A stretch of DNA of 64,000 bases from Candidatus Adlerbacteria bacterium (GTDB taxonomy: Bacteria; Patescibacteriota; Minisyncoccia; Phycocordibacterales; SBAW01), in NCBI GenBank assembly GCA_037135035.1, contig JBAXLB010000003.1, positions 3,548-67,547 of the forward strand, in the 5' to 3' direction. Shown piece after piece: positions 4,548 to 57,074 of this stretch. Both the position numbers and the translations under genes were made by a program. The first letter of the stretch is position 1. Each line of letters starts with the position of its first letter. The notes beneath the pieces are model-generated. The model saw only the letters and a list, made by a program, of their open reading frames with translations. It did not search any database and had not been told where the DNA came from.

Positions 4548-5250
4548 TTTTAAAGTATATCATTTGGGTACTGCTGCCGAGCCATGTGGCCGAACTGCTC
4601 CCACTGACAGGAAACTGAGCCCCTAGATATTTTGGTACCCGCATCGACCACAGGTCGAGGACCGCTTTAATAGATGCCGGGATTTCGCGCACTGTGTACC
4701 ACAAATATTTTTCTCCTTGCGACGCATCAATGCCAGTCGCATCCAACCCCAGCGAACGCGCGATAAATACAGCGCGGCGCAGATGGAACGCTTGGGACAC
4801 TACAACAACCGAGGTAACGTCAAACACTTCGCGTGCCCGGTACATACTGCTGTAGGTATCAAACCCTGCGTAATCTAGAAATATATCTTCTTCGGGCACT
4901 CCTTGTATAAGTAAATATTTTCCAACTGGGTAGACCTCGTCGTACGAAAGAGTACTGTTGTCTCCTGTTACTAAAATTTTTTCTACTGTTTTTGCTTTGT
5001 ACAGCTGGACCGCCTTGTCGGCACGCTCTGCCATCACCGCCGAAAGCTTCCCACTTGATGAAACAGAGGCGCCCAGCACCAGAGCAACTTCTGCATGTGG
5101 CGGTGTTTCTGTTGCGGAATATATAAACGGTGCGGTAGCAATGTCTGCATAGGCAATTATCCCAGCACACACTACAAAGACCGCAAACAAAACAAGAAAC
5201 ATTCGCGTTGCCCACACCTTCATATAGATAGTATAGCTTTTTGGCAGCAC
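4537..5250 (-). CDS. SanA/YdcF family protein (DUF218)
   Basis: N-terminal TM, DUF218-like core (LVLGASV...ILVTGD); true start probably the internal MKVW (about 5223). Confidence 0.6.
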
Positions 5251-5287
5251 AAAAGCCGCTCCAGCTTTACAGCATGAGCGGCTTTTG
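5251..5287. terminator. rho-independent terminator downstream of cspA
   Basis: aaaagccgct...gcggctttt hairpin. Confidence 0.55.
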
Positions 5288-5308
5288 TCGAGGTTTCCCT
5301 CGCCTACA

Positions 5309-5506
5309 TTAGGCGCGAGATACGTTTACAGCACTTGGGCCTTTTTCACCCTGAGCGACTTCAAAGCTGACCATATCGCCAACTTTAAGTTCGTCAAAAG
5401 TTACTCCCTGCAACTCTTTGGAGTGAAAAAAGAGATCCTTCGCCTCGCCTTCGCGAGAGATGAATCCGAATCCACGGTCCGTAAGCGTTTTGATTGTTCC
5501 TGTCAT
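5309..5506 (-). CDS. cspA: cold-shock protein (CspA family)
   Basis: 65 aa; GTIKTLTDRGFGFI and FFHSKEL motifs. Confidence 0.9.
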   Translation of the reverse strand: MTGTIKTLTDRGFGFISREGEAKDLFFHSKELQGVTFDELKVGDMVSFEVAQGEKGPSAVNVSRA

Positions 5507-5610: not shown

Positions 5611-6276
5611 CTACCACTCAGGCAGGGGCACCACTTCGGTAACCTCCATCTGCGGGGCAGGTATCACGCACAGCACTTTGCCCGCAATTTTAAAGTCTTC
5701 TTTCAAGATAATGGGCTTAAATTTTGGGTCTTTTGACTCGGGCCAGAGTATTGTCATGCCGTCGCGTTTTTCAAGCCGCTTAACCGTGACCATGTCGTTT
5801 ACAATAGCGGCCACACGGTCGCCAGTTTCTGCGTGGTCGGTAAACCGGATAAGCACGTAGTCGCCGGTGTTAATTCCAGCGTCGTTCATACTGTCACCAA
5901 TAGCGCGCACCGCAACGATGTCGCCGTCCTCCTCTTCAACAATACGTTTGTCGACTTCTAAAAATTCGTCCACTTCCTGCTGGGCAAACACCGAAAGGTC
6001 ATCGCAGCCAACGTTTGCTATAACGGGGATGCTCACTGTCCCCCACGCCCCGTCGACGTTGCGCAGTTCGATATTACGTGCGGCGTTTTTGCGGCGAACG
6101 ATATAACCTTTGCGCTCTAAAATGTCCAAGTATTGCGTGACCGTGCGGAGCGAACTAAACCCCAAACTTTCACGAAGCTGTTCGAGCGTTGGGGACATAT
6201 TTTCTGTCCGGAGATATTCCCGCACCACATTAAGCACCCGCTGCTGCTTGAACGTTAAAAGGTTTTGGATATACAT
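5611..6276 (-). CDS. lexA: LexA repressor (S24 peptidase)
   Basis: N-terminal wHTH, AVRAIGDSM (Ser-Lys dyad region), C-terminal S24 fold; ATG at 6276 preferred over GTG at 6282. Confidence 0.85.
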   Translation of the reverse strand: MYIQNLLTFKQQRVLNVVREYLRTENMSPTLEQLRESLGFSSLRTVTQYLDILERKGYIVRRKNAARNIELRNVDGAWGTVSIPVIANVGCDDLSVFAQQEVDEFLEVDKRIVEEEDGDIVAVRAIGDSMNDAGINTGDYVLIRFTDHAETGDRVAAIVNDMVTVKRLEKRDGMTILWPESKDPKFKPIILKEDFKIAGKVLCVIPAPQMEVTEVVPLPEW

Positions 6277-6297
6277 ATACACTAGTATATCAACTTT

Positions 6298-6316
6298 TTG
6301 TGTAATTAATACACAA
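6298..6316. promoter_or_regulatory. candidate LexA operator / dyad symmetric site TTGTGTA-N5-TACACAA
   Basis: 7-bp inverted repeat about 22 bp upstream of the lexA start codon. Confidence 0.45.
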
Positions 6317-6341
6317 GATACACTAATGCATGTGGATAAGT

Positions 6342-6644
6342 TTAGTGCGTGTGGTCGTGGTGAGGGTGAACGTGTGAGTGCGAATTGCCCTTGGTAAAGA
6401 GCTGGTCAAACTTGAGCTTTGCCACAAAAAACAAGTAGAAGATCTCCAAAATCCCAGCAGTGTTAACAACAAAGATAGCCATAAACCACCACGGCTGGCC
6501 ATTGCGGCTTGCGTGCCACAACCCCAAACCTTTCCACACAAGCGACCATACAGCAGCTACTGCCACTAACCCAAACAGCGGAGACGACCAAAACGGCAAG
6601 TTGATAAAAAAGCTCTGATCCATCCCATAGTGATGTGTATACAT
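6342..6644 (-). CDS. small membrane protein (DUF5652-like) with His-rich C-terminus
   Basis: 100 aa, 2-3 TM, C-terminal HSHVHPHHDHTH. Confidence 0.5.
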   Translation of the reverse strand: MYTHHYGMDQSFFINLPFWSSPLFGLVAVAAVWSLVWKGLGLWHASRNGQPWWFMAIFVVNTAGILEIFYLFFVAKLKFDQLFTKGNSHSHVHPHHDHTH

Positions 6645-6708
6645 ACCTACTAGTATACAACATTGCTGTAGTGTAAGCAGGACAAGTGCAGTCCGTCATC
6701 ACTAGTCT

Positions 6709-7755
6709 ATGACTCTAAGCGTAAACTTAAAGCGCACTGTGGTTGCAGTTATGCTTATGGCAGGGCTTTTGTTGCCTACCTATGCCGCACTTGCACAGAC
6801 TCCTAACCTTATATACGCGCCTGCTCCAACGACATGCCCCGTGTTTTACAACAACATATACCTAGGGTTGCAAAATACCGACGTCACTAACTTGCAGGCG
6901 TTTCTTTCTACTCAAGGGTACTTCCCCTATTCGCCTATTGGTATTTTTGGGCCGCTTACGTTCCGCGCAGTACAAAACTTCCAAGCAGCGCACGGCCTCC
7001 CACGGACAGGGTATGTAGGTGTTATGACCCGCGGCGTATTTGGACAGATAGGTTGCACAACTACTACCTACCCACCGTACCCATACCCGCAACCACAGCC
7101 ACAACCCGTGCCTCCTGTACAACAAGTGTCCATACAAACAATGTCGCCCCAGAGCGGACCCGTTGGAACAGTTGTTACCTTGTACGGGTCAGGATTGTAC
7201 GGAACAAACACCGTGTACTTTGGCGGCAAAGCGCTTGACGCTGTGTATTCAAACAACGGAACGACACTGACATTTACTGTTCCGCAATATATATCACCTA
7301 ACTGCCCGCCGGGTGCATATTGCGCAATGTCCTCCGGAGTCTCGGCTTTTTGGGTTCGGCCAACAACGCCCGGCACCTACCAGGTGTACGCACAAAACCA
7401 AAACGGCACAAGCAACACTGTAAACTTCTATGTCACTGACCAGAGCGCGCAAAACCAAACGCCTGTAATTAGCGGTATTGATGCTCCCCCACAGTTGAGT
7501 GTCGGCCAAACAGGCACATGGACAGTCCGCGCAACATTGCAAAATTATGTAAACGGCGCCAACCTCCACTACCAGAGCGTGTGGGGTGACGAAACAACCT
7601 ACGCCTATGCCGCAGTTGCAAGTGGGCAACCAATACAAACATCGGCAACATTTACCCACATGTATGTTACAGCTGGCACCTACCACCCAACATTTACTGT
7701 TTCAAACGACACGGGCCAGCAGGCAACTATAAGCGCCACAGTAGTAGTGCACTAA
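6709..7755 (+). CDS. secreted protein with peptidoglycan-binding domain and Ig-like repeats
   Basis: signal peptide; PG_binding_1-like segment (LQAFLSTQGYFPYSPIGIFGPLTFRAVQNFQAAHGLPRTGYVG); Pro-rich linker; beta-rich C-terminus. Confidence 0.65.
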   Translation: MTLSVNLKRTVVAVMLMAGLLLPTYAALAQTPNLIYAPAPTTCPVFYNNIYLGLQNTDVTNLQAFLSTQGYFPYSPIGIFGPLTFRAVQNFQAAHGLPRTGYVGVMTRGVFGQIGCTTTTYPPYPYPQPQPQPVPPVQQVSIQTMSPQSGPVGTVVTLYGSGLYGTNTVYFGGKALDAVYSNNGTTLTFTVPQYISPNCPPGAYCAMSSGVSAFWVRPTTPGTYQVYAQNQNGTSNTVNFYVTDQSAQNQTPVISGIDAPPQLSVGQTGTWTVRATLQNYVNGANLHYQSVWGDETTYAYAAVASGQPIQTSATFTHMYVTAGTYHPTFTVSNDTGQQATISATVVVH

Positions 7756-15576: not shown

Positions 15577-15624
15577 ATTGCCAGCCTCGCCCGTAGGACG
15601 GTCTACGGCCGAGGGATCGTCTAA
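15577..15624 (+). repeat. direct repeat A: tRNA-Gln 5'-end copy with 31-nt hairpin insertion
   Basis: attgccag[cctcgcccgtaggacggtctacggccgaggg]atcgtctaa; near-identical copy at 15860-15908. Confidence 0.8.
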
Positions 15625-15629
15625 ATCAT

Positions 15630-15908
15630 ATGCATTACGTATATGTTTTGAAAAGTAAGAAGGACGGCAATCTGTATATAGGTTGTACTGGTGATATTAC
15701 AAAACGAATAGAGCAGCATAAGAACGGAAAGGTGCGAGCGACAAAAAGTAGGTTGCCGGTTGAGTTGATCTATAAGGAAGAATATAGTGATAAGTATGAA
15801 GCGTTTTATCAGGAACGTTTCTACAAAACTCCAAAAGGCAAAAGAGAGTTGAAGGAAAAATTGCCAGCCTCGCCCGTAGGACGGAGCTACGGCCGAGGGA
15901 TCGTCTAA
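15630..15908 (+). CDS. GIY-YIG nuclease family protein (second copy; 3' end runs into repeat B)
   Basis: MHYVYVLKSKKDGNLYIGCTGDITKRIEQHK motif; a degenerate copy of this gene's 3' end lies at about 15520-15576. Confidence 0.7.
   Translation: MHYVYVLKSKKDGNLYIGCTGDITKRIEQHKNGKVRATKSRLPVELIYKEEYSDKYEAFYQERFYKTPKGKRELKEKLPASPVGRSYGRGIV
15860..15908 (+). repeat. direct repeat B (see repeat A)
   Basis: 49 nt, 1-2 differences from repeat A. Confidence 0.8.
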
Positions 15909-28300: not shown

Positions 28301-28375
28301 CGCGGCCAACCGGACTCGAACCGGCAACCTCTTCCGTGACAGGGAAGCGCTCTAACCAAATTGAGCTATGGCCGC
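28301..28375 (-). tRNA. tRNA-Asp (anticodon GTC)
   Basis: GCGGCCA acceptor, anticodon arm CTTCC-CTGTCAC-GGAAG, T-loop TTCGAGT. Confidence 0.85.
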
Positions 28376-28439
28376 AAATGAGGAACATCGCCTACAGTAG
28401 CGCACTTGGCGGTTATTTTCAAATTACTAGTGGACTGGC

Positions 28440-28568
28440 TTTCGGTCAAATTCTGCCGTCGCAGAATTCGCCTGCAGCCCCGGCTCGCGGTTTTGCAAGT
28501 GCAAAACATCGCTGTGCCGTGCAAGTCCTTACGCGCCATGCATTGGCATGGCGCTCCCTCACACTTTG
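28440..28568 (-). ncRNA. conserved structured RNA-like element, copy A (three hairpins), between tRNA-Met and tRNA-Asp
   Basis: core 28484-28512 is identical to copy B (55957-55985); the hairpin-2 stem differs from copy B but stays paired (gaattctgc-gacggc-agaattt versus aatgtgcgc-gacggc-gcatatt). Confidence 0.5.
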
Positions 28569-28642
28569 TGTCGATGGAAGGACTTGCACCTTCGACCTTG
28601 GCTTTATGAGTGCCATGCTCTAACTACCTGAGCTACACCGAC
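28569..28642 (-). tRNA. tRNA-Met (anticodon CAT; elongator or Ile2-type not resolved)
   Basis: GTCGGTG acceptor, loop CTCATAA, unusual T-loop TGCAAGT. Confidence 0.7.
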
Positions 28643-50452: not shown

Positions 50453-50595
50453 TATTTGAGGTGAAATTGGAGGGATTGAGGATGTGAGGGAGGGATTCGG
50501 TCACAAGTATTTTTCTGCTGAAAAATCTCGCGACCCCGCCTCCCCACCCAAGGTGGGTCCGGCTTTCGAATCCCAACCACTATTCCGACATAAAC

Positions 50596-50626
50596 AAAAA
50601 ACAGGTGCCGAAGCACCCATTTTTTG
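50596..50626. terminator. terminator hairpin downstream of tRNA-Ser
   Basis: aaaaaacaggtgccgaagcacccatttttt. Confidence 0.55.
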
Positions 50627-50631
50627 TTTTG

Positions 50632-50717
50632 CGGAGAGGGAGGGATTCGAACCCTCGAGAGGTTTACCCTCTACCTCCTTAGCAAGGAGGCACAATCGAC
50701 CACTCTGACACCTCTCC
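50632..50717 (-). tRNA. tRNA-Ser (anticodon GCT), long variable arm
   Basis: GGAGAGG acceptor, anticodon arm CCTCC-TTGCTAA-GGAGG, T-loop TTCGAAT. Confidence 0.85.
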
Positions 50718-55827: not shown

Positions 55828-55901
55828 GTGCCTGTAGCTCAGTTGGTTAGAGCTCCGAGCTTATACCTCGGCGGTCCCTGGTTCGAGTCCAGGCAGGCAC
55901 A
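55828..55901 (+). tRNA. tRNA-Ile (anticodon TAT, UAU)
   Basis: GTGCCTG acceptor, anticodon arm CCGAG-CTTATAC-CTCGG, T-loop TTCGAGT. Confidence 0.8.
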
Positions 55902-55947
55902 CAAAAGTTACAAAGACCTGCCCTGCGGCAGGTTTTGTACTTTTGTG
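55902..55947 (+). terminator. long hairpin (terminator-like) immediately after tRNA-Ile
   Basis: caaaagttacaaagacctgcc-ctgc-ggcaggttttgtacttttg. Confidence 0.5.
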
Positions 55948-55949
55948 TG

Positions 55950-56030
55950 AGCCGGAGCGATGTTTTGCACTTGCAAAACCGCGAGGCAGGGTCGTGCGGC
56001 AATGTGCGCGACGGCGCATATTGAACGCCT
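55950..56030 (+). ncRNA. conserved structured RNA-like element, copy B
   Basis: core gcgatgttttgcacttgcaaaaccgcgag is identical to copy A (reverse strand, 28484-28512); second hairpin differs from copy A but pairing is kept. Confidence 0.5.
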
Positions 56031-56111
56031 GACCACAAAAGACATCTCATAAAAATAATTCCGTGCTATTGTGCGGAGCGGATAACAACGGCACATAGAA
56101 GGAGAACCGCC

Positions 56112-57074
56112 GTGATTGCTCTTCCAAAGTTTAATAACACCTTCAAGGGTGTTTGCTTCCCCTACCCCGCGTGGGTGGCGGGCGGAATCTTCAAGACGAG
56201 CAAGCAGATGATCTGGGCGCTCAAGCACCATATCATCGGCGAATGGGGCTCGATCGAAACCGAAGCCTCAAACGGTAACGGTGGGCGTGACTATTTTGCC
56301 CACTATGTCGAAGTCGGTGGTGTTCGGGTGCTTATGTACACGCAGAACTCGCGCGGCATCCCCAACCCGGGCATGACTTACATCGAGGAACGTTTCGCGA
56401 TGGTCTATCACGAGTACGAAGACGCGAACTTTCCTCTCATCCTCAATGTCTCGGGCAAGAACGTGGCCGACACGCTCGAGCTGATGTGGCGGGCAGCACA
56501 ATGCGGCTTCAAGGTCGTAGTGGTAAGCGGTGCGTGCCCCAATAAGGGCAACCAGCCCATTCTCTGCTACGACCAGGAAGCGGTCAGTGAACTGTTCGAG
56601 CGTGCCGAAAAAGAAATCGGGCCTTCGAATGTCATTTTCCTCTGGAAGGTATCGACCGGTATGCCGCGGCCGATTCTTGCCCACAATCGTATGTGTGTTG
56701 GGCGTTCGAAAGTCTTCGACGGCATCGTAACGGGAAACGCTGTTCCGAACACCTTCGACTATCTTCCCGACGGCACGACAACCATCATGACGGACAAGCA
56801 CGGCTTGATCCGTGGCGCTATGGCCGGACCCGCGATCCTACCGATGGCGCTCGACCACACACAGTTTTGTTCTTGTGGCATACCTTCAAAGAAGATCGTT
56901 GTTGGATGCGGCGGCATCTCGGGTGGTGAATCCGGGATGAAGCACATGCGGGCGGGGGCGAGCTTCGTCCAAACCCACAGCGCTTTTCGCGAGTCGGGCG
57001 AAGACCCTGACTTCATGCGCGAGCTCAACCGGAAGTTGTTCAAGCGTCTCGAACAGGTTCCTGCCGCAGCTTGA
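56112..57074 (+). CDS. dihydroorotate dehydrogenase-family flavoprotein (GC3-rich, foreign-looking)
   Basis: DHOD-like motifs LNVSGKN, VSGACPNKGN, LWKVSTGM, VGCGGISGGESG; GTG start; strong GC3 bias unlike neighbours. Confidence 0.6.
   Translation: MIALPKFNNTFKGVCFPYPAWVAGGIFKTSKQMIWALKHHIIGEWGSIETEASNGNGGRDYFAHYVEVGGVRVLMYTQNSRGIPNPGMTYIEERFAMVYHEYEDANFPLILNVSGKNVADTLELMWRAAQCGFKVVVVSGACPNKGNQPILCYDQEAVSELFERAEKEIGPSNVIFLWKVSTGMPRPILAHNRMCVGRSKVFDGIVTGNAVPNTFDYLPDGTTTIMTDKHGLIRGAMAGPAILPMALDHTQFCSCGIPSKKIVVGCGGISGGESGMKHMRAGASFVQTHSAFRESGEDPDFMRELNRKLFKRLEQVPAAA

Follow-up and report, generated by a model that had tools for sequence, protein, structure and literature searches.

Directly behind the tRNA-Ile(UAU) gene in a 64,000-nt stretch of DNA from Candidatus Adlerbacteria (assembly GCA_037135035.1, contig JBAXLB010000003.1, positions 3,548 to 67,547; this whole stretch is the window, and position 1 is its first letter), there is a folded cassette containing no open reading frame (ORF), called copy B here. 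From its first base at 55902 it forms three successive hairpins named H0, P2, and P3, and the first of these closes with a short segment, a', that is antisense to the end of the tRNA. Comparison with orthologous sites in related genomes shows that the block is an insertion. We give an even chance to the reading that copy B is one of a family of ORF-less cassettes that insert specifically at tRNA 3' ends and probably move as a folded single strand. On this reading, the best supported of those considered, the cassette has been mobile on evolutionary time scales, with the folded, strand-specific P2-P3 as its conserved functional part. An earlier note on this DNA had described a tRNA-associated structured element here, in 2 copies and upstream of a DHOD-like gene; a third copy in the window, the reach of H0 into the tRNA, the insertion polymorphism, and the lack of a tie to the DHOD-like gene are additions to it.

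The insertion is seen at tRNA genes that occur with and without the cassette. Where tRNA-Val(UAC) is followed by an rluA-like gene, 2 loci are empty, the ATG being located 0 to 3 nt past the tRNA (L043 and L064), and 2 others have a 170- to 190-nt cassette at that spot (L008 and L059). The L008 and L059 cassettes differ in H0 and belong to different P2-P3 subfamilies, and both have an a' matched to the tRNA end ...CGCAC. The L059 cassette stops only 12 nt before the ATG and therefore has to be transcribed if the next gene is to be expressed. The site of copy B, tRNA-Ile(UAU), is empty in the metagenome relative L100, where the tRNA is followed by TTTTTTTGAAACACTCG, a shared TTCCGTGCTAT motif, and a pyrB-like gene, with no H0, a', or P2-P3. 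The same site is filled in the window and in an 85%-identical relative, L063, with different P2/P3 subfamilies in the two; it is also filled in L005, and L003 has H0 and a' with no P2-P3. Nested and tandem arrangements are found as well. L014 reads as tRNA-Glu, a short-type cassette, an 18-nt repeat, a type B cassette (the types are described below), a 12-nt repeat, and the old terminator, and in 4 loci (L084, L020, L044, and L029) units of different subfamilies stand in tandem, with the local a' plus AG ahead of each. P3 identity is 0.50 within assemblies and 0.54 between them, and the comparison gave no sign of concerted evolution or of a recent burst within a genome. Copy B itself is about 94% identical to the tRNA-Val copy in L008 and to L075, and the P3 of the third window copy, copy C, is 93% identical to a copy behind tRNA-Glu (L014:5360); nearly identical modules thus occur at tRNAs that are not orthologous.

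The tRNA-Ile(UAU) gene is encoded at 55828-55901 (+), as identified by ARAGORN, by an Rfam tRNA score of 70.5 bits, and by its fold, in which the final four bases, CACA (55898-55901), pair with the cassette. The whole cassette runs from 55902 to 56044 (+), with a covariance-model match of 90 bits at 55950-56043. Its left edge falls directly after the discriminator base and is defined by the empty site in L100, where the tRNA end ...GGCACA is followed by TTTTTTT. The right edge is approximate: the folded part ends at 56034 and the A-rich tail at about 56044, slightly past the 56030 at which the earlier note had ended the element, which is otherwise found where it was placed. H0 (55898-55949, +), a long terminator-like hairpin recognized by a terminator scan and by minimum-free-energy folds, consists of an A-tract, a GC stem, a CUGC loop (55923-55926), and a U-tract, and its stem starts within the tRNA at nt 70-73. 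The GC-rich hairpin with a U-run that characterizes an intrinsic terminator is contained in H0 alone (55913-55936 plus GTACTTTTGT); as P2 and P3 have no U-run, the whole cassette is more than a terminator. The a' segment is UGUG (55946-55949, +), the antisense of the CACA at tRNA nt 70-73; throughout the family this segment changes in step with the end of the tRNA, and it is positioned 2 nt ahead of the P2 foot.

P2 (55951-55987, +), defined by alignments and covariation, contains a 30-nt core and is built as GCC / GGA / GCG / AU bulge / GUUUUGC, loop ACUU, GCAAAAC / CGC / GA / GGC. In other copies its GCC/GGC base pairs are exchanged for GGC/GCC, and in diverged copies the tip covaries. P3 (55990-56034, +), defined by alignment and covariation in the same way, is a hairpin with an irregular stem of about 19 bp, a bulged A that is AA in copy B, and the loop GACG (56010-56013); changes on both sides are found at 13 of its 13 inner pairs and all 4 of its 4 basal pairs. 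The A-rich tail, CCACAAAAGACA (56033-56044, +, read from the sequence), repeats the tRNA end plus the start of the trailer, with CACAAAAG occurring at 55900-55907 and again at 56035-56042. Against shuffled sequence the fold z-score is -5.8 for copy B and -4.2 for copy A, and in both copies the tRNA-sense strand folds better than the opposite strand.

Copy A is encoded on the other strand at 28428-28567 (-), between tRNA-Met (28569-28642) and tRNA-Asp (28301-28375), with a covariance-model match of 94 bits. The exact 30-mer AGCGATGTTTTGCACTTGCAAAACCGCGAG of the copy B P2 has its second occurrence there, at 28484-28513 on the - strand; 2 matches in the window compare with 0.00 expected from 100 shuffles. 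Copies A and B differ by compensatory changes in P3, around the conserved GACG loop, and at the base of P2. Given a shared 30-mer that shuffles do not produce and folds far better than shuffled sequence, the observation is real and not chance, and the likeness of the 2 copies, proposed earlier, stands. The order in copy A is a hairpin with a CAAU loop, a' (AAGGACUUGCAC, 28519-28530), P2, and P3, and its a' is antisense in 12 of 12 positions to the T-loop and T-stem of tRNA-Met. Copy C is a diverged copy at 50486-50630 (-) behind tRNA-Ser(GCU) (50632-50717), which the covariance model matches at 50490-50564 (-) with 37 bits and E = 7e-7. It consists of a terminator hairpin, an a' (GGGAUUCGAA, 50565-50574) that is antisense in 10 of 10 positions to the T-loop of tRNA-Ser(GCU), short P2/P3 tips around an unchanged junction, and 14 nt (50486-50499) that directly repeat the 3' part of the tRNA; the gene that follows is an efflux-pump gene.

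To see how widely the element is distributed, 185,579 species genomes were scanned with the P2 tip ATGTTTTGCNNNNGCAAAACCGC, which gave 98 stretches. The full element is present in about 80 of the 98, all of them Patescibacteria, in genomes of Adlerbacteria, Paceibacterota, Nomurabacteria, Kaiserbacteria, and Magasanikbacteria and in metagenome-assembled genomes (MAGs) labelled Saccharibacteria. A covariance model from 67 aligned cores finds 105 copies in 80 stretches, copy C among them, with several copies per genome and at least 8 on one 754-kb contig. In the alignment, which had been fitted to the model, the share of paired cells is 97.1%, compared with 74.8% in shuffles and about 40% in slid controls. 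Both sides have changed in 28 of the 29 pairs of the family structure, so the description of the element as structured has held up. G.U and U.G pairs number 118 against 17 A.C and C.A mismatches, an excess that identifies the tRNA-sense strand as the folding strand. What is conserved is the lengths of the stems, the bulged A of P3, a G(A/U)CG loop, and a GGGG linker, with stem sequences varying freely. The cassettes are about 100 to 200 nt in size, and none has an ORF. Rfam 15 gives only tRNA and tmRNA at the gathering threshold and nothing relevant at E <= 10 on copies A and B, and our literature search found no description of the element. Resemblances to kink-turns, hammerhead, group II domain V, HDV-like, and CRISPR-repeat structures were looked for by eye in the alignment and dropped.

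The association with tRNAs, also part of the earlier description, proves general: 86 of the 105 copies have a same-strand tRNA no more than 400 nt upstream, with a gap to the model start of 43 to 49 nt in 60 of them, most commonly 47. Most of the remaining copies are at locus edges or behind tRNA-like 3' ends overlooked by ARAGORN. More than 13 tRNA identities are used, and the cassette is present at 85 of the 174 tRNAs in loci carrying the element. Of the features next downstream, 64 share the strand of the cassette and 35 lie on the opposite one, a split at the background level (335 of 580); the element therefore goes with its tRNA rather than with the gene behind it. No association exists with tRNAs lacking an encoded CCA (14/85 vs 17/88). 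The idea of a tRNA-like RNA with an encoded CCA was rejected because the ACC of ...GACCA covaries within the P3 stem.

Two arrangements are distinguished. In type B, to which copy B belongs, the cassette comes directly after the discriminator base; H0 begins inside the tRNA, and its 3' arm closes with an a' of about 4 nt complementary to nt 70-73. The tRNA end and a' vary together with the tRNA, as GUCA/UGAC, CCCA/UGGG, UCCA/UGGA, GGCA/UGCC, and, in copy B, CACA/UGUG. A pairing of 4 nt is the most frequent (33 of 60 type B copies), and cognate antisense runs have a mean of 8.75 nt against 5.39 nt for non-cognate ones. At least 3 of the last 5 nt are paired into the hairpin in 96% of type B tRNAs and in 42% of tRNAs with no element, and the trailing hairpins have a mean dG of -31 kcal/mol for type B against -13 for tRNAs with no element. 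Type A, to which copies A and C belong, has a duplicated tRNA segment from the T-loop to the 3' end. Its a' measures 10 to 12 nt and is the antisense of the T-loop plus the T-stem's 3' strand, some copies also have a segment like the 5' side of the acceptor, and the module is followed by a direct repeat of the 3' part of the tRNA and sometimes by the old trailer and terminator. These direct repeats measure 19 nt in L049, 18/19 in L089, 16 in L058, 17 in L081, and 14 in copy C, and those of the nested L014 measure 18 and 12; in most type B copies the tRNA-end direct repeat is weak. A closing stem (P1) of a' with the tail was considered as a universal feature and was dropped, as it could not be told apart from non-cognate pairs.

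Several observations extend around the family. Chlamydiae MAGs, at the loci L036 (about 6300-6910, -), L096 (about 5000-5470, -), L019, and L050, have the same P2 hairpin, in the form GCG-AU-GUUUUGC-GAAA-GCAAAAC-CGC, within larger cassettes of about 250 nt behind tRNAs. Their layout is similar, with a hairpin that includes the tRNA end and a T-loop antisense, and L036 also has 17-nt repeats of the tRNA 3' end and 2 units in tandem. A type D variant (L058, L081, L029, and L011) has a branched domain of about 130 nt (GGGGAUGAAAGGCAAACUGC...GGUGCCGAAGGCAAGCGCCGAUGCCGC...) in place of P3, and in L058 and L081 it ends with the usual ACUUGUGRYCA and then a tRNA repeat of 16 to 17 nt. RNase P RNA was considered for type D and rejected. 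Rfam matches neither type D nor the Chlamydiae loci. Other two-hairpin modules that look unrelated, such as GGGGUCGGGGAAAC...GUUUCCCCGUGG, occur at L051 (tRNA-Ser tga), L053 (tRNA-Arg ccg), L038 (tRNA-Thr cgt), and L078 (tRNA-Leu gag) in the same shell of tRNA-end hairpin, T-loop antisense, and tRNA 3' repeat (the repeat being seen for L053 and L078), so several module families use the shell. A hairpin of about 55 nt (..CTAATYTTCTTAG..GAAAATGGAAGTACTC..) stands within element copies of L070 (about 6700-6760), L092, and L093 (about 1420-1475, -), at different internal positions, and may be a second small insertion family. Six loci of the Clostridia MAG CAMNVW01 (L032, L041, L055, L062, L085, and L097) with TTT-ATGTTTTGCNNNNGCAAAACCGC-ACTNCCGTGCG are a different repeat with the same hairpin tip by chance, and no link to tRNAs was noted for them.

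How such a cassette might move can be sketched as follows. It would be, or until recently have been, a non-autonomous mobile element, and its travelling form would be a folded single strand, most likely of DNA and less likely of RNA. In the folded form, a' would pair with the tRNA 3' end and thereby specify or mimic the target, and P2 with P3 would be the structural handle for a putative enzyme acting in trans. The effect on the host would be nearly neutral, the cassette bringing its own terminator-like hairpin and tRNA 3' processing cutting it off the tRNA. The order of tRNA end, hairpin, antisense, module, and repeat is what would be expected from a circle of core-R-anticore-module integrating at the core, and in such a circle both alternative pairings of a' are one helix. 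The most unusual feature is an a' that is nearly universal and locally matched. Two different cassettes at one tRNA-Val site both have an a' that fits, which suggests that the matching takes place during insertion, for instance if the tRNA end were copied by snap-back from the H0 foot; or else insertion may itself require the match, as a guide or a target mimic.

Among mobile elements, the ends of IS200/IS605 and their ORF-less derivatives (PATEs and REP/REPIN, which Y1 HUH transposases mobilize) are likewise small, strand-specific, and hairpin-based, and like the cassette they lack terminal inverted repeats and a target duplication of fixed length. The IS608 guide is a 4-nt stretch on the 5' foot of a subterminal hairpin and reportedly pairs with the 4 nt next to the left end. 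The cassette has a 4-nt a' located 2 nt before the P2 foot and Watson-Crick complementary to the left-flanking tRNA bases, a resemblance in layout only. In IS200/IS605 the guide and the target tetranucleotide are constant, whereas in the cassette they vary by tRNA, the flanks being GUCA, CCCA, UCCA, GGCA, AGCA, CACA, CGGA, CGCA, and others, each with its own a'. A further difference is that the cassette has a 44-nt hairpin between flank and guide and is exclusive to tRNA 3' ends. The feet of its hairpins do not have the GTAG/CGTC tags of REPs (PMC3733652). Integron attC sites and the attP(+) of CTX phage are similar in conserving structure over sequence, in strand-specific folding, in extrahelical bases, in tandem arrays, and in having a stem of 2 inverted segments that imitates a double-stranded target. 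Unlike these, the cassette has no GTTRRRY core or dif-like site and its target is a tRNA gene; in alignments no attC R''/R' consensus (RYYYAAC ... GTTRRRY) is found at the feet of P1, P2, or P3, and the loop part (P2-P3) is the most conserved in the cassette and the most variable in attC. The miniature inverted-repeat transposable elements (MITEs) and structured intergenic repeats of bacteria (Correia, ERIC, BOX, RUP, and BIME; reviewed in PMC2229807) are also multi-copy and ORF-less, fold as RNA, occur at the ends of genes, are transcribed along with them, and can provide terminators or processing sites. The cassette matches the MITE definition in having multiple dispersed copies and no ORF, but MITEs have constant terminal inverted repeats and a fixed duplication or dinucleotide, and no tRNA-end specificity or flank-matched antisense.

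Several results weigh against a mobile element moving in this way. The constant terminal inverted repeats and the fixed-length target duplication of MITEs are absent: the cassettes end in an A-rich tract and ...GUGACCACAA with repeats of 0 to 19 nt, the sole inverted repeat, formed by a' and the tRNA end, comes from the target and changes from copy to copy, and the filled sites in L008 and L059 have no fixed target-site duplication. A mobilizing enzyme was not found. Pfam searches of 60 ORFs in the window, 64 kb of the genome, gave no transposase, integrase, reverse transcriptase, or Y1 transposase, and the single OrfB_IS605-type protein of the window (22366-23619) adjoins Cas1 and a CRISPR array; nor was an integrase, reverse transcriptase, or Y1 transposase found beside the Chlamydiae copies. 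No copy was found in viral contigs. We know of no transposition mechanism that would explain the matching of a' to each new tRNA. The order tRNA-Arg(UCU)-cassette-tRNA-Val(UAC) is kept across several genomes, and copies within a genome are old and diverged, and both are compatible with vertical descent over a long time under selection. Strict conservation of the stem lengths, of the bulged A, of the GACG loop, and of the 30-nt core would agree equally well with an RNA function for the host.

That function is the substance of the main rival explanation, possible though on the unlikely side in our estimate, in which the cassette is a structured RNA working in the 3' trailers of tRNAs. Read-through transcripts would fold into the three hairpins. 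The duplex of H0 into nt 70-73 would be a processing stalk, for RNase III as an example, as in rRNA precursors, by which the tRNA is parted from the sequence behind it, and P2-P3 would be a stable small RNA or a protective 5' structure binding a conserved protein. The very strong covariation, the conserved unpaired bases, and the G.U bias on the transcribed strand all agree with this, as do the constant tRNA-sense orientation, the required transcription through the L059 cassette, and the conserved synteny of some copies. It is also favored by compensatory changes that orthologous loci of tRNA-Arg(UCU) show in the lower part of the H0 stem and by the near universality of the a':tRNA pairing while the downstream repeat decays. 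Among known RNAs, the E. coli 3'ETS-leuZ, MALAT1 mascRNA, and the herpesvirus TMERs are comparable structured RNAs located 3' of a tRNA and releasable by tRNA processing, and the acceptor-like stem of type A copies is akin to RNAs released from tRNA precursors; however, those are single loci with defined targets, whereas the cassettes are multi-copy insertions with site polymorphism. Further counts against a trailer function are that a canonical terminator hairpin with its U-tract precedes the module, that only 85 of the 174 tRNAs carry the cassette, with the same tRNA having or lacking it depending on the genome, and that there is no relation to encoded CCA or to downstream genes. Nested and tandem copies and direct repeats of tRNA ends would not be needed for such an RNA, and the cloverleaf would be disturbed if a' paired with the tRNA as predicted. 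The mobile-element and host-RNA readings can be compatible, the cassette being tolerated because tRNA processing removes it.

A bolder form of the mobile-element reading is a protein-gene-free element with its own base-pairing guide to tRNA 3' ends, spread from Patescibacteria to Chlamydiota. It would be either a folded single-stranded DNA, with snap-back pairing to the tRNA end setting its target and re-templating it at every insertion, or a small ribozyme; we hold this very tentatively and consider it unlikely. The ribozyme version by itself, as a new small ribozyme-type element with P2-P3 (larger in type D and in Chlamydiae) as catalytic core, is improbable. In it, a' would be an internal guide, and the element would cleave or reversibly ligate the junction of tRNA and cassette, giving self-removal and mobility at the RNA level. 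The topology of H0 is that of the P1 helix of a group I intron, in which an internal segment pairs with the end of the upstream "exon", here the tRNA, and with the start of the element, the junction being inside. In addition, copy C shows variable hairpin tips next to conserved junction nucleotides, the element is exactly at the mature tRNA 3' end, and no protein partner was found among the window ORFs or the Chlamydiae neighbors. However, the junction is base-paired on both sides, unlike known cleavage sites, and in type A the a' faces the T-loop, far from the junction. The core is also small, about 85 nt in 2 plain hairpins with a 2- to 4-nt linker, and matches no known ribozyme family at E <= 10. 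As for a group I intron proper, the cassette is outside the tRNA and has no U.G pair at the junction, there is no Intron_gpI match, and the 85-nt two-hairpin core compares with a P3-P9 core of at least about 200 nt. Introns in tRNA genes are abundant in Patescibacteria (PMC13011429).

Even less probable is that the cassettes are scars of integrase-type islands or prophages in tRNA genes, with P2-P3 as an attP-adjacent arm and the interior deleted. Integrative elements in tRNA genes are said to leave attL/attR repeats of the 3' end, with the T-loop and the 3' end as sublocations. The 14- to 19-nt direct repeats of the cassettes from the T-loop to the 3' end are this classical integrase signature, and as with such elements a functional tRNA is rebuilt beside the element, a displaced copy and the old terminator are distal, and insertions stack. 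The gap from tRNA to module is no more than 199 nt in 86 of the 105 members, those with a detected upstream tRNA, which leaves no cargo or integrase gene between them. The cassettes also differ from such elements in being 100 to 200 nt with no integrase or ORF, in using many tRNAs (more than 13 identities), and in bearing, besides a conserved folded module, one more copy of the target in inverted form (a'). Units of about 100 nt in tandem also count against scars, as does the covariation, which indicates continuing selection on the fold.

The DHOD-like gene that follows copy B (56112-57074) does match Pfam DHO_dh, and it is GC3-rich as the earlier note had it, its GC3 of 0.69 being the top of the window against about 0.5. 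Its foreign look is borne out only in part: the nearest named homologues are proteins of Kaiserbacteria and Paceibacterota, and the closest relative, L063, has only a remnant of the gene (5890-6290). In L100 there is a pyrB-like gene instead (180-600), and the window, L063, and L100 have the TTCCGTGCTAT motif in common upstream of the gene. The site appears to be a variable pyrimidine-gene locus, and the gene appears not to be cargo of the cassette, as it is located beyond the tail. That the cassette is a cis-regulatory leader or riboswitch of this pyrimidine gene, suggested by its position about 70 nt upstream on the same strand, is refuted by the distribution across the family: copy A is between 2 tRNAs, copy C is before an efflux-pump gene, downstream genes are unrelated and oriented as in the background (64 same, 35 opposite), and L063 keeps the cassette with the gene reduced to its remnant.

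Three other features of the window may be recorded. A tRNA-Thr(GGU) at 26064-26322 (-) is split behind U36 of its anticodon loop by 185 nt of inserted sequence (26102-26286) that ends in G; the gene was overlooked by ARAGORN and Rfam, and there is no group I intron match at E <= 1, and the tRNA introns of Patescibacteria (PMC13011429) are the comparison for it. A 92-amino-acid GIY-YIG ORF (15630-15908, +) shortly before tRNA-Gln (15945) is bracketed by an exact 25-nt direct repeat, ATTGCCAGCCTCGCCCGTAGGACGG, at 15577-15601 and 15860-15884 (+), and the repeat starts like the 5' end of tRNA-Gln. The region 21020-23619 looks like a very compact type V-like CRISPR-Cas locus, with 5 CRISPR-like repeats, GTAGCGTACCCCCTTGTTCCTGAAGAGGGACTTGGGAAC, at 21020-21336 with a period of 71 to 73 nt, beside a Cas1-like ORF (21541-22281, -) and a 417-amino-acid ORF (22366-23619, -) whose only Pfam match is the helix-turn-helix of OrfB_IS605 (TnpB/Cas12-like).

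The genomes of the candidate phyla radiation are among the smallest and most streamlined, and yet in the loci sampled here a conserved folded cassette follows roughly every second tRNA gene. Such cassettes, and the tRNA-like shells of type A, can mislead the annotation of tRNAs, terminators, and operons. If the cassettes are mobile, they would be a tRNA-end-specific element that has no gene of its own and has a target-matched guide in each copy, and retargeting could be programmable; to our knowledge, no described bacterial repeat family combines tRNA-end specificity, the lack of a gene, and a target-matched guide. If they are host RNA, they would indicate an unrecognized step in the processing of tRNA transcripts, in a phylum whose RNA biology is almost unexplored.

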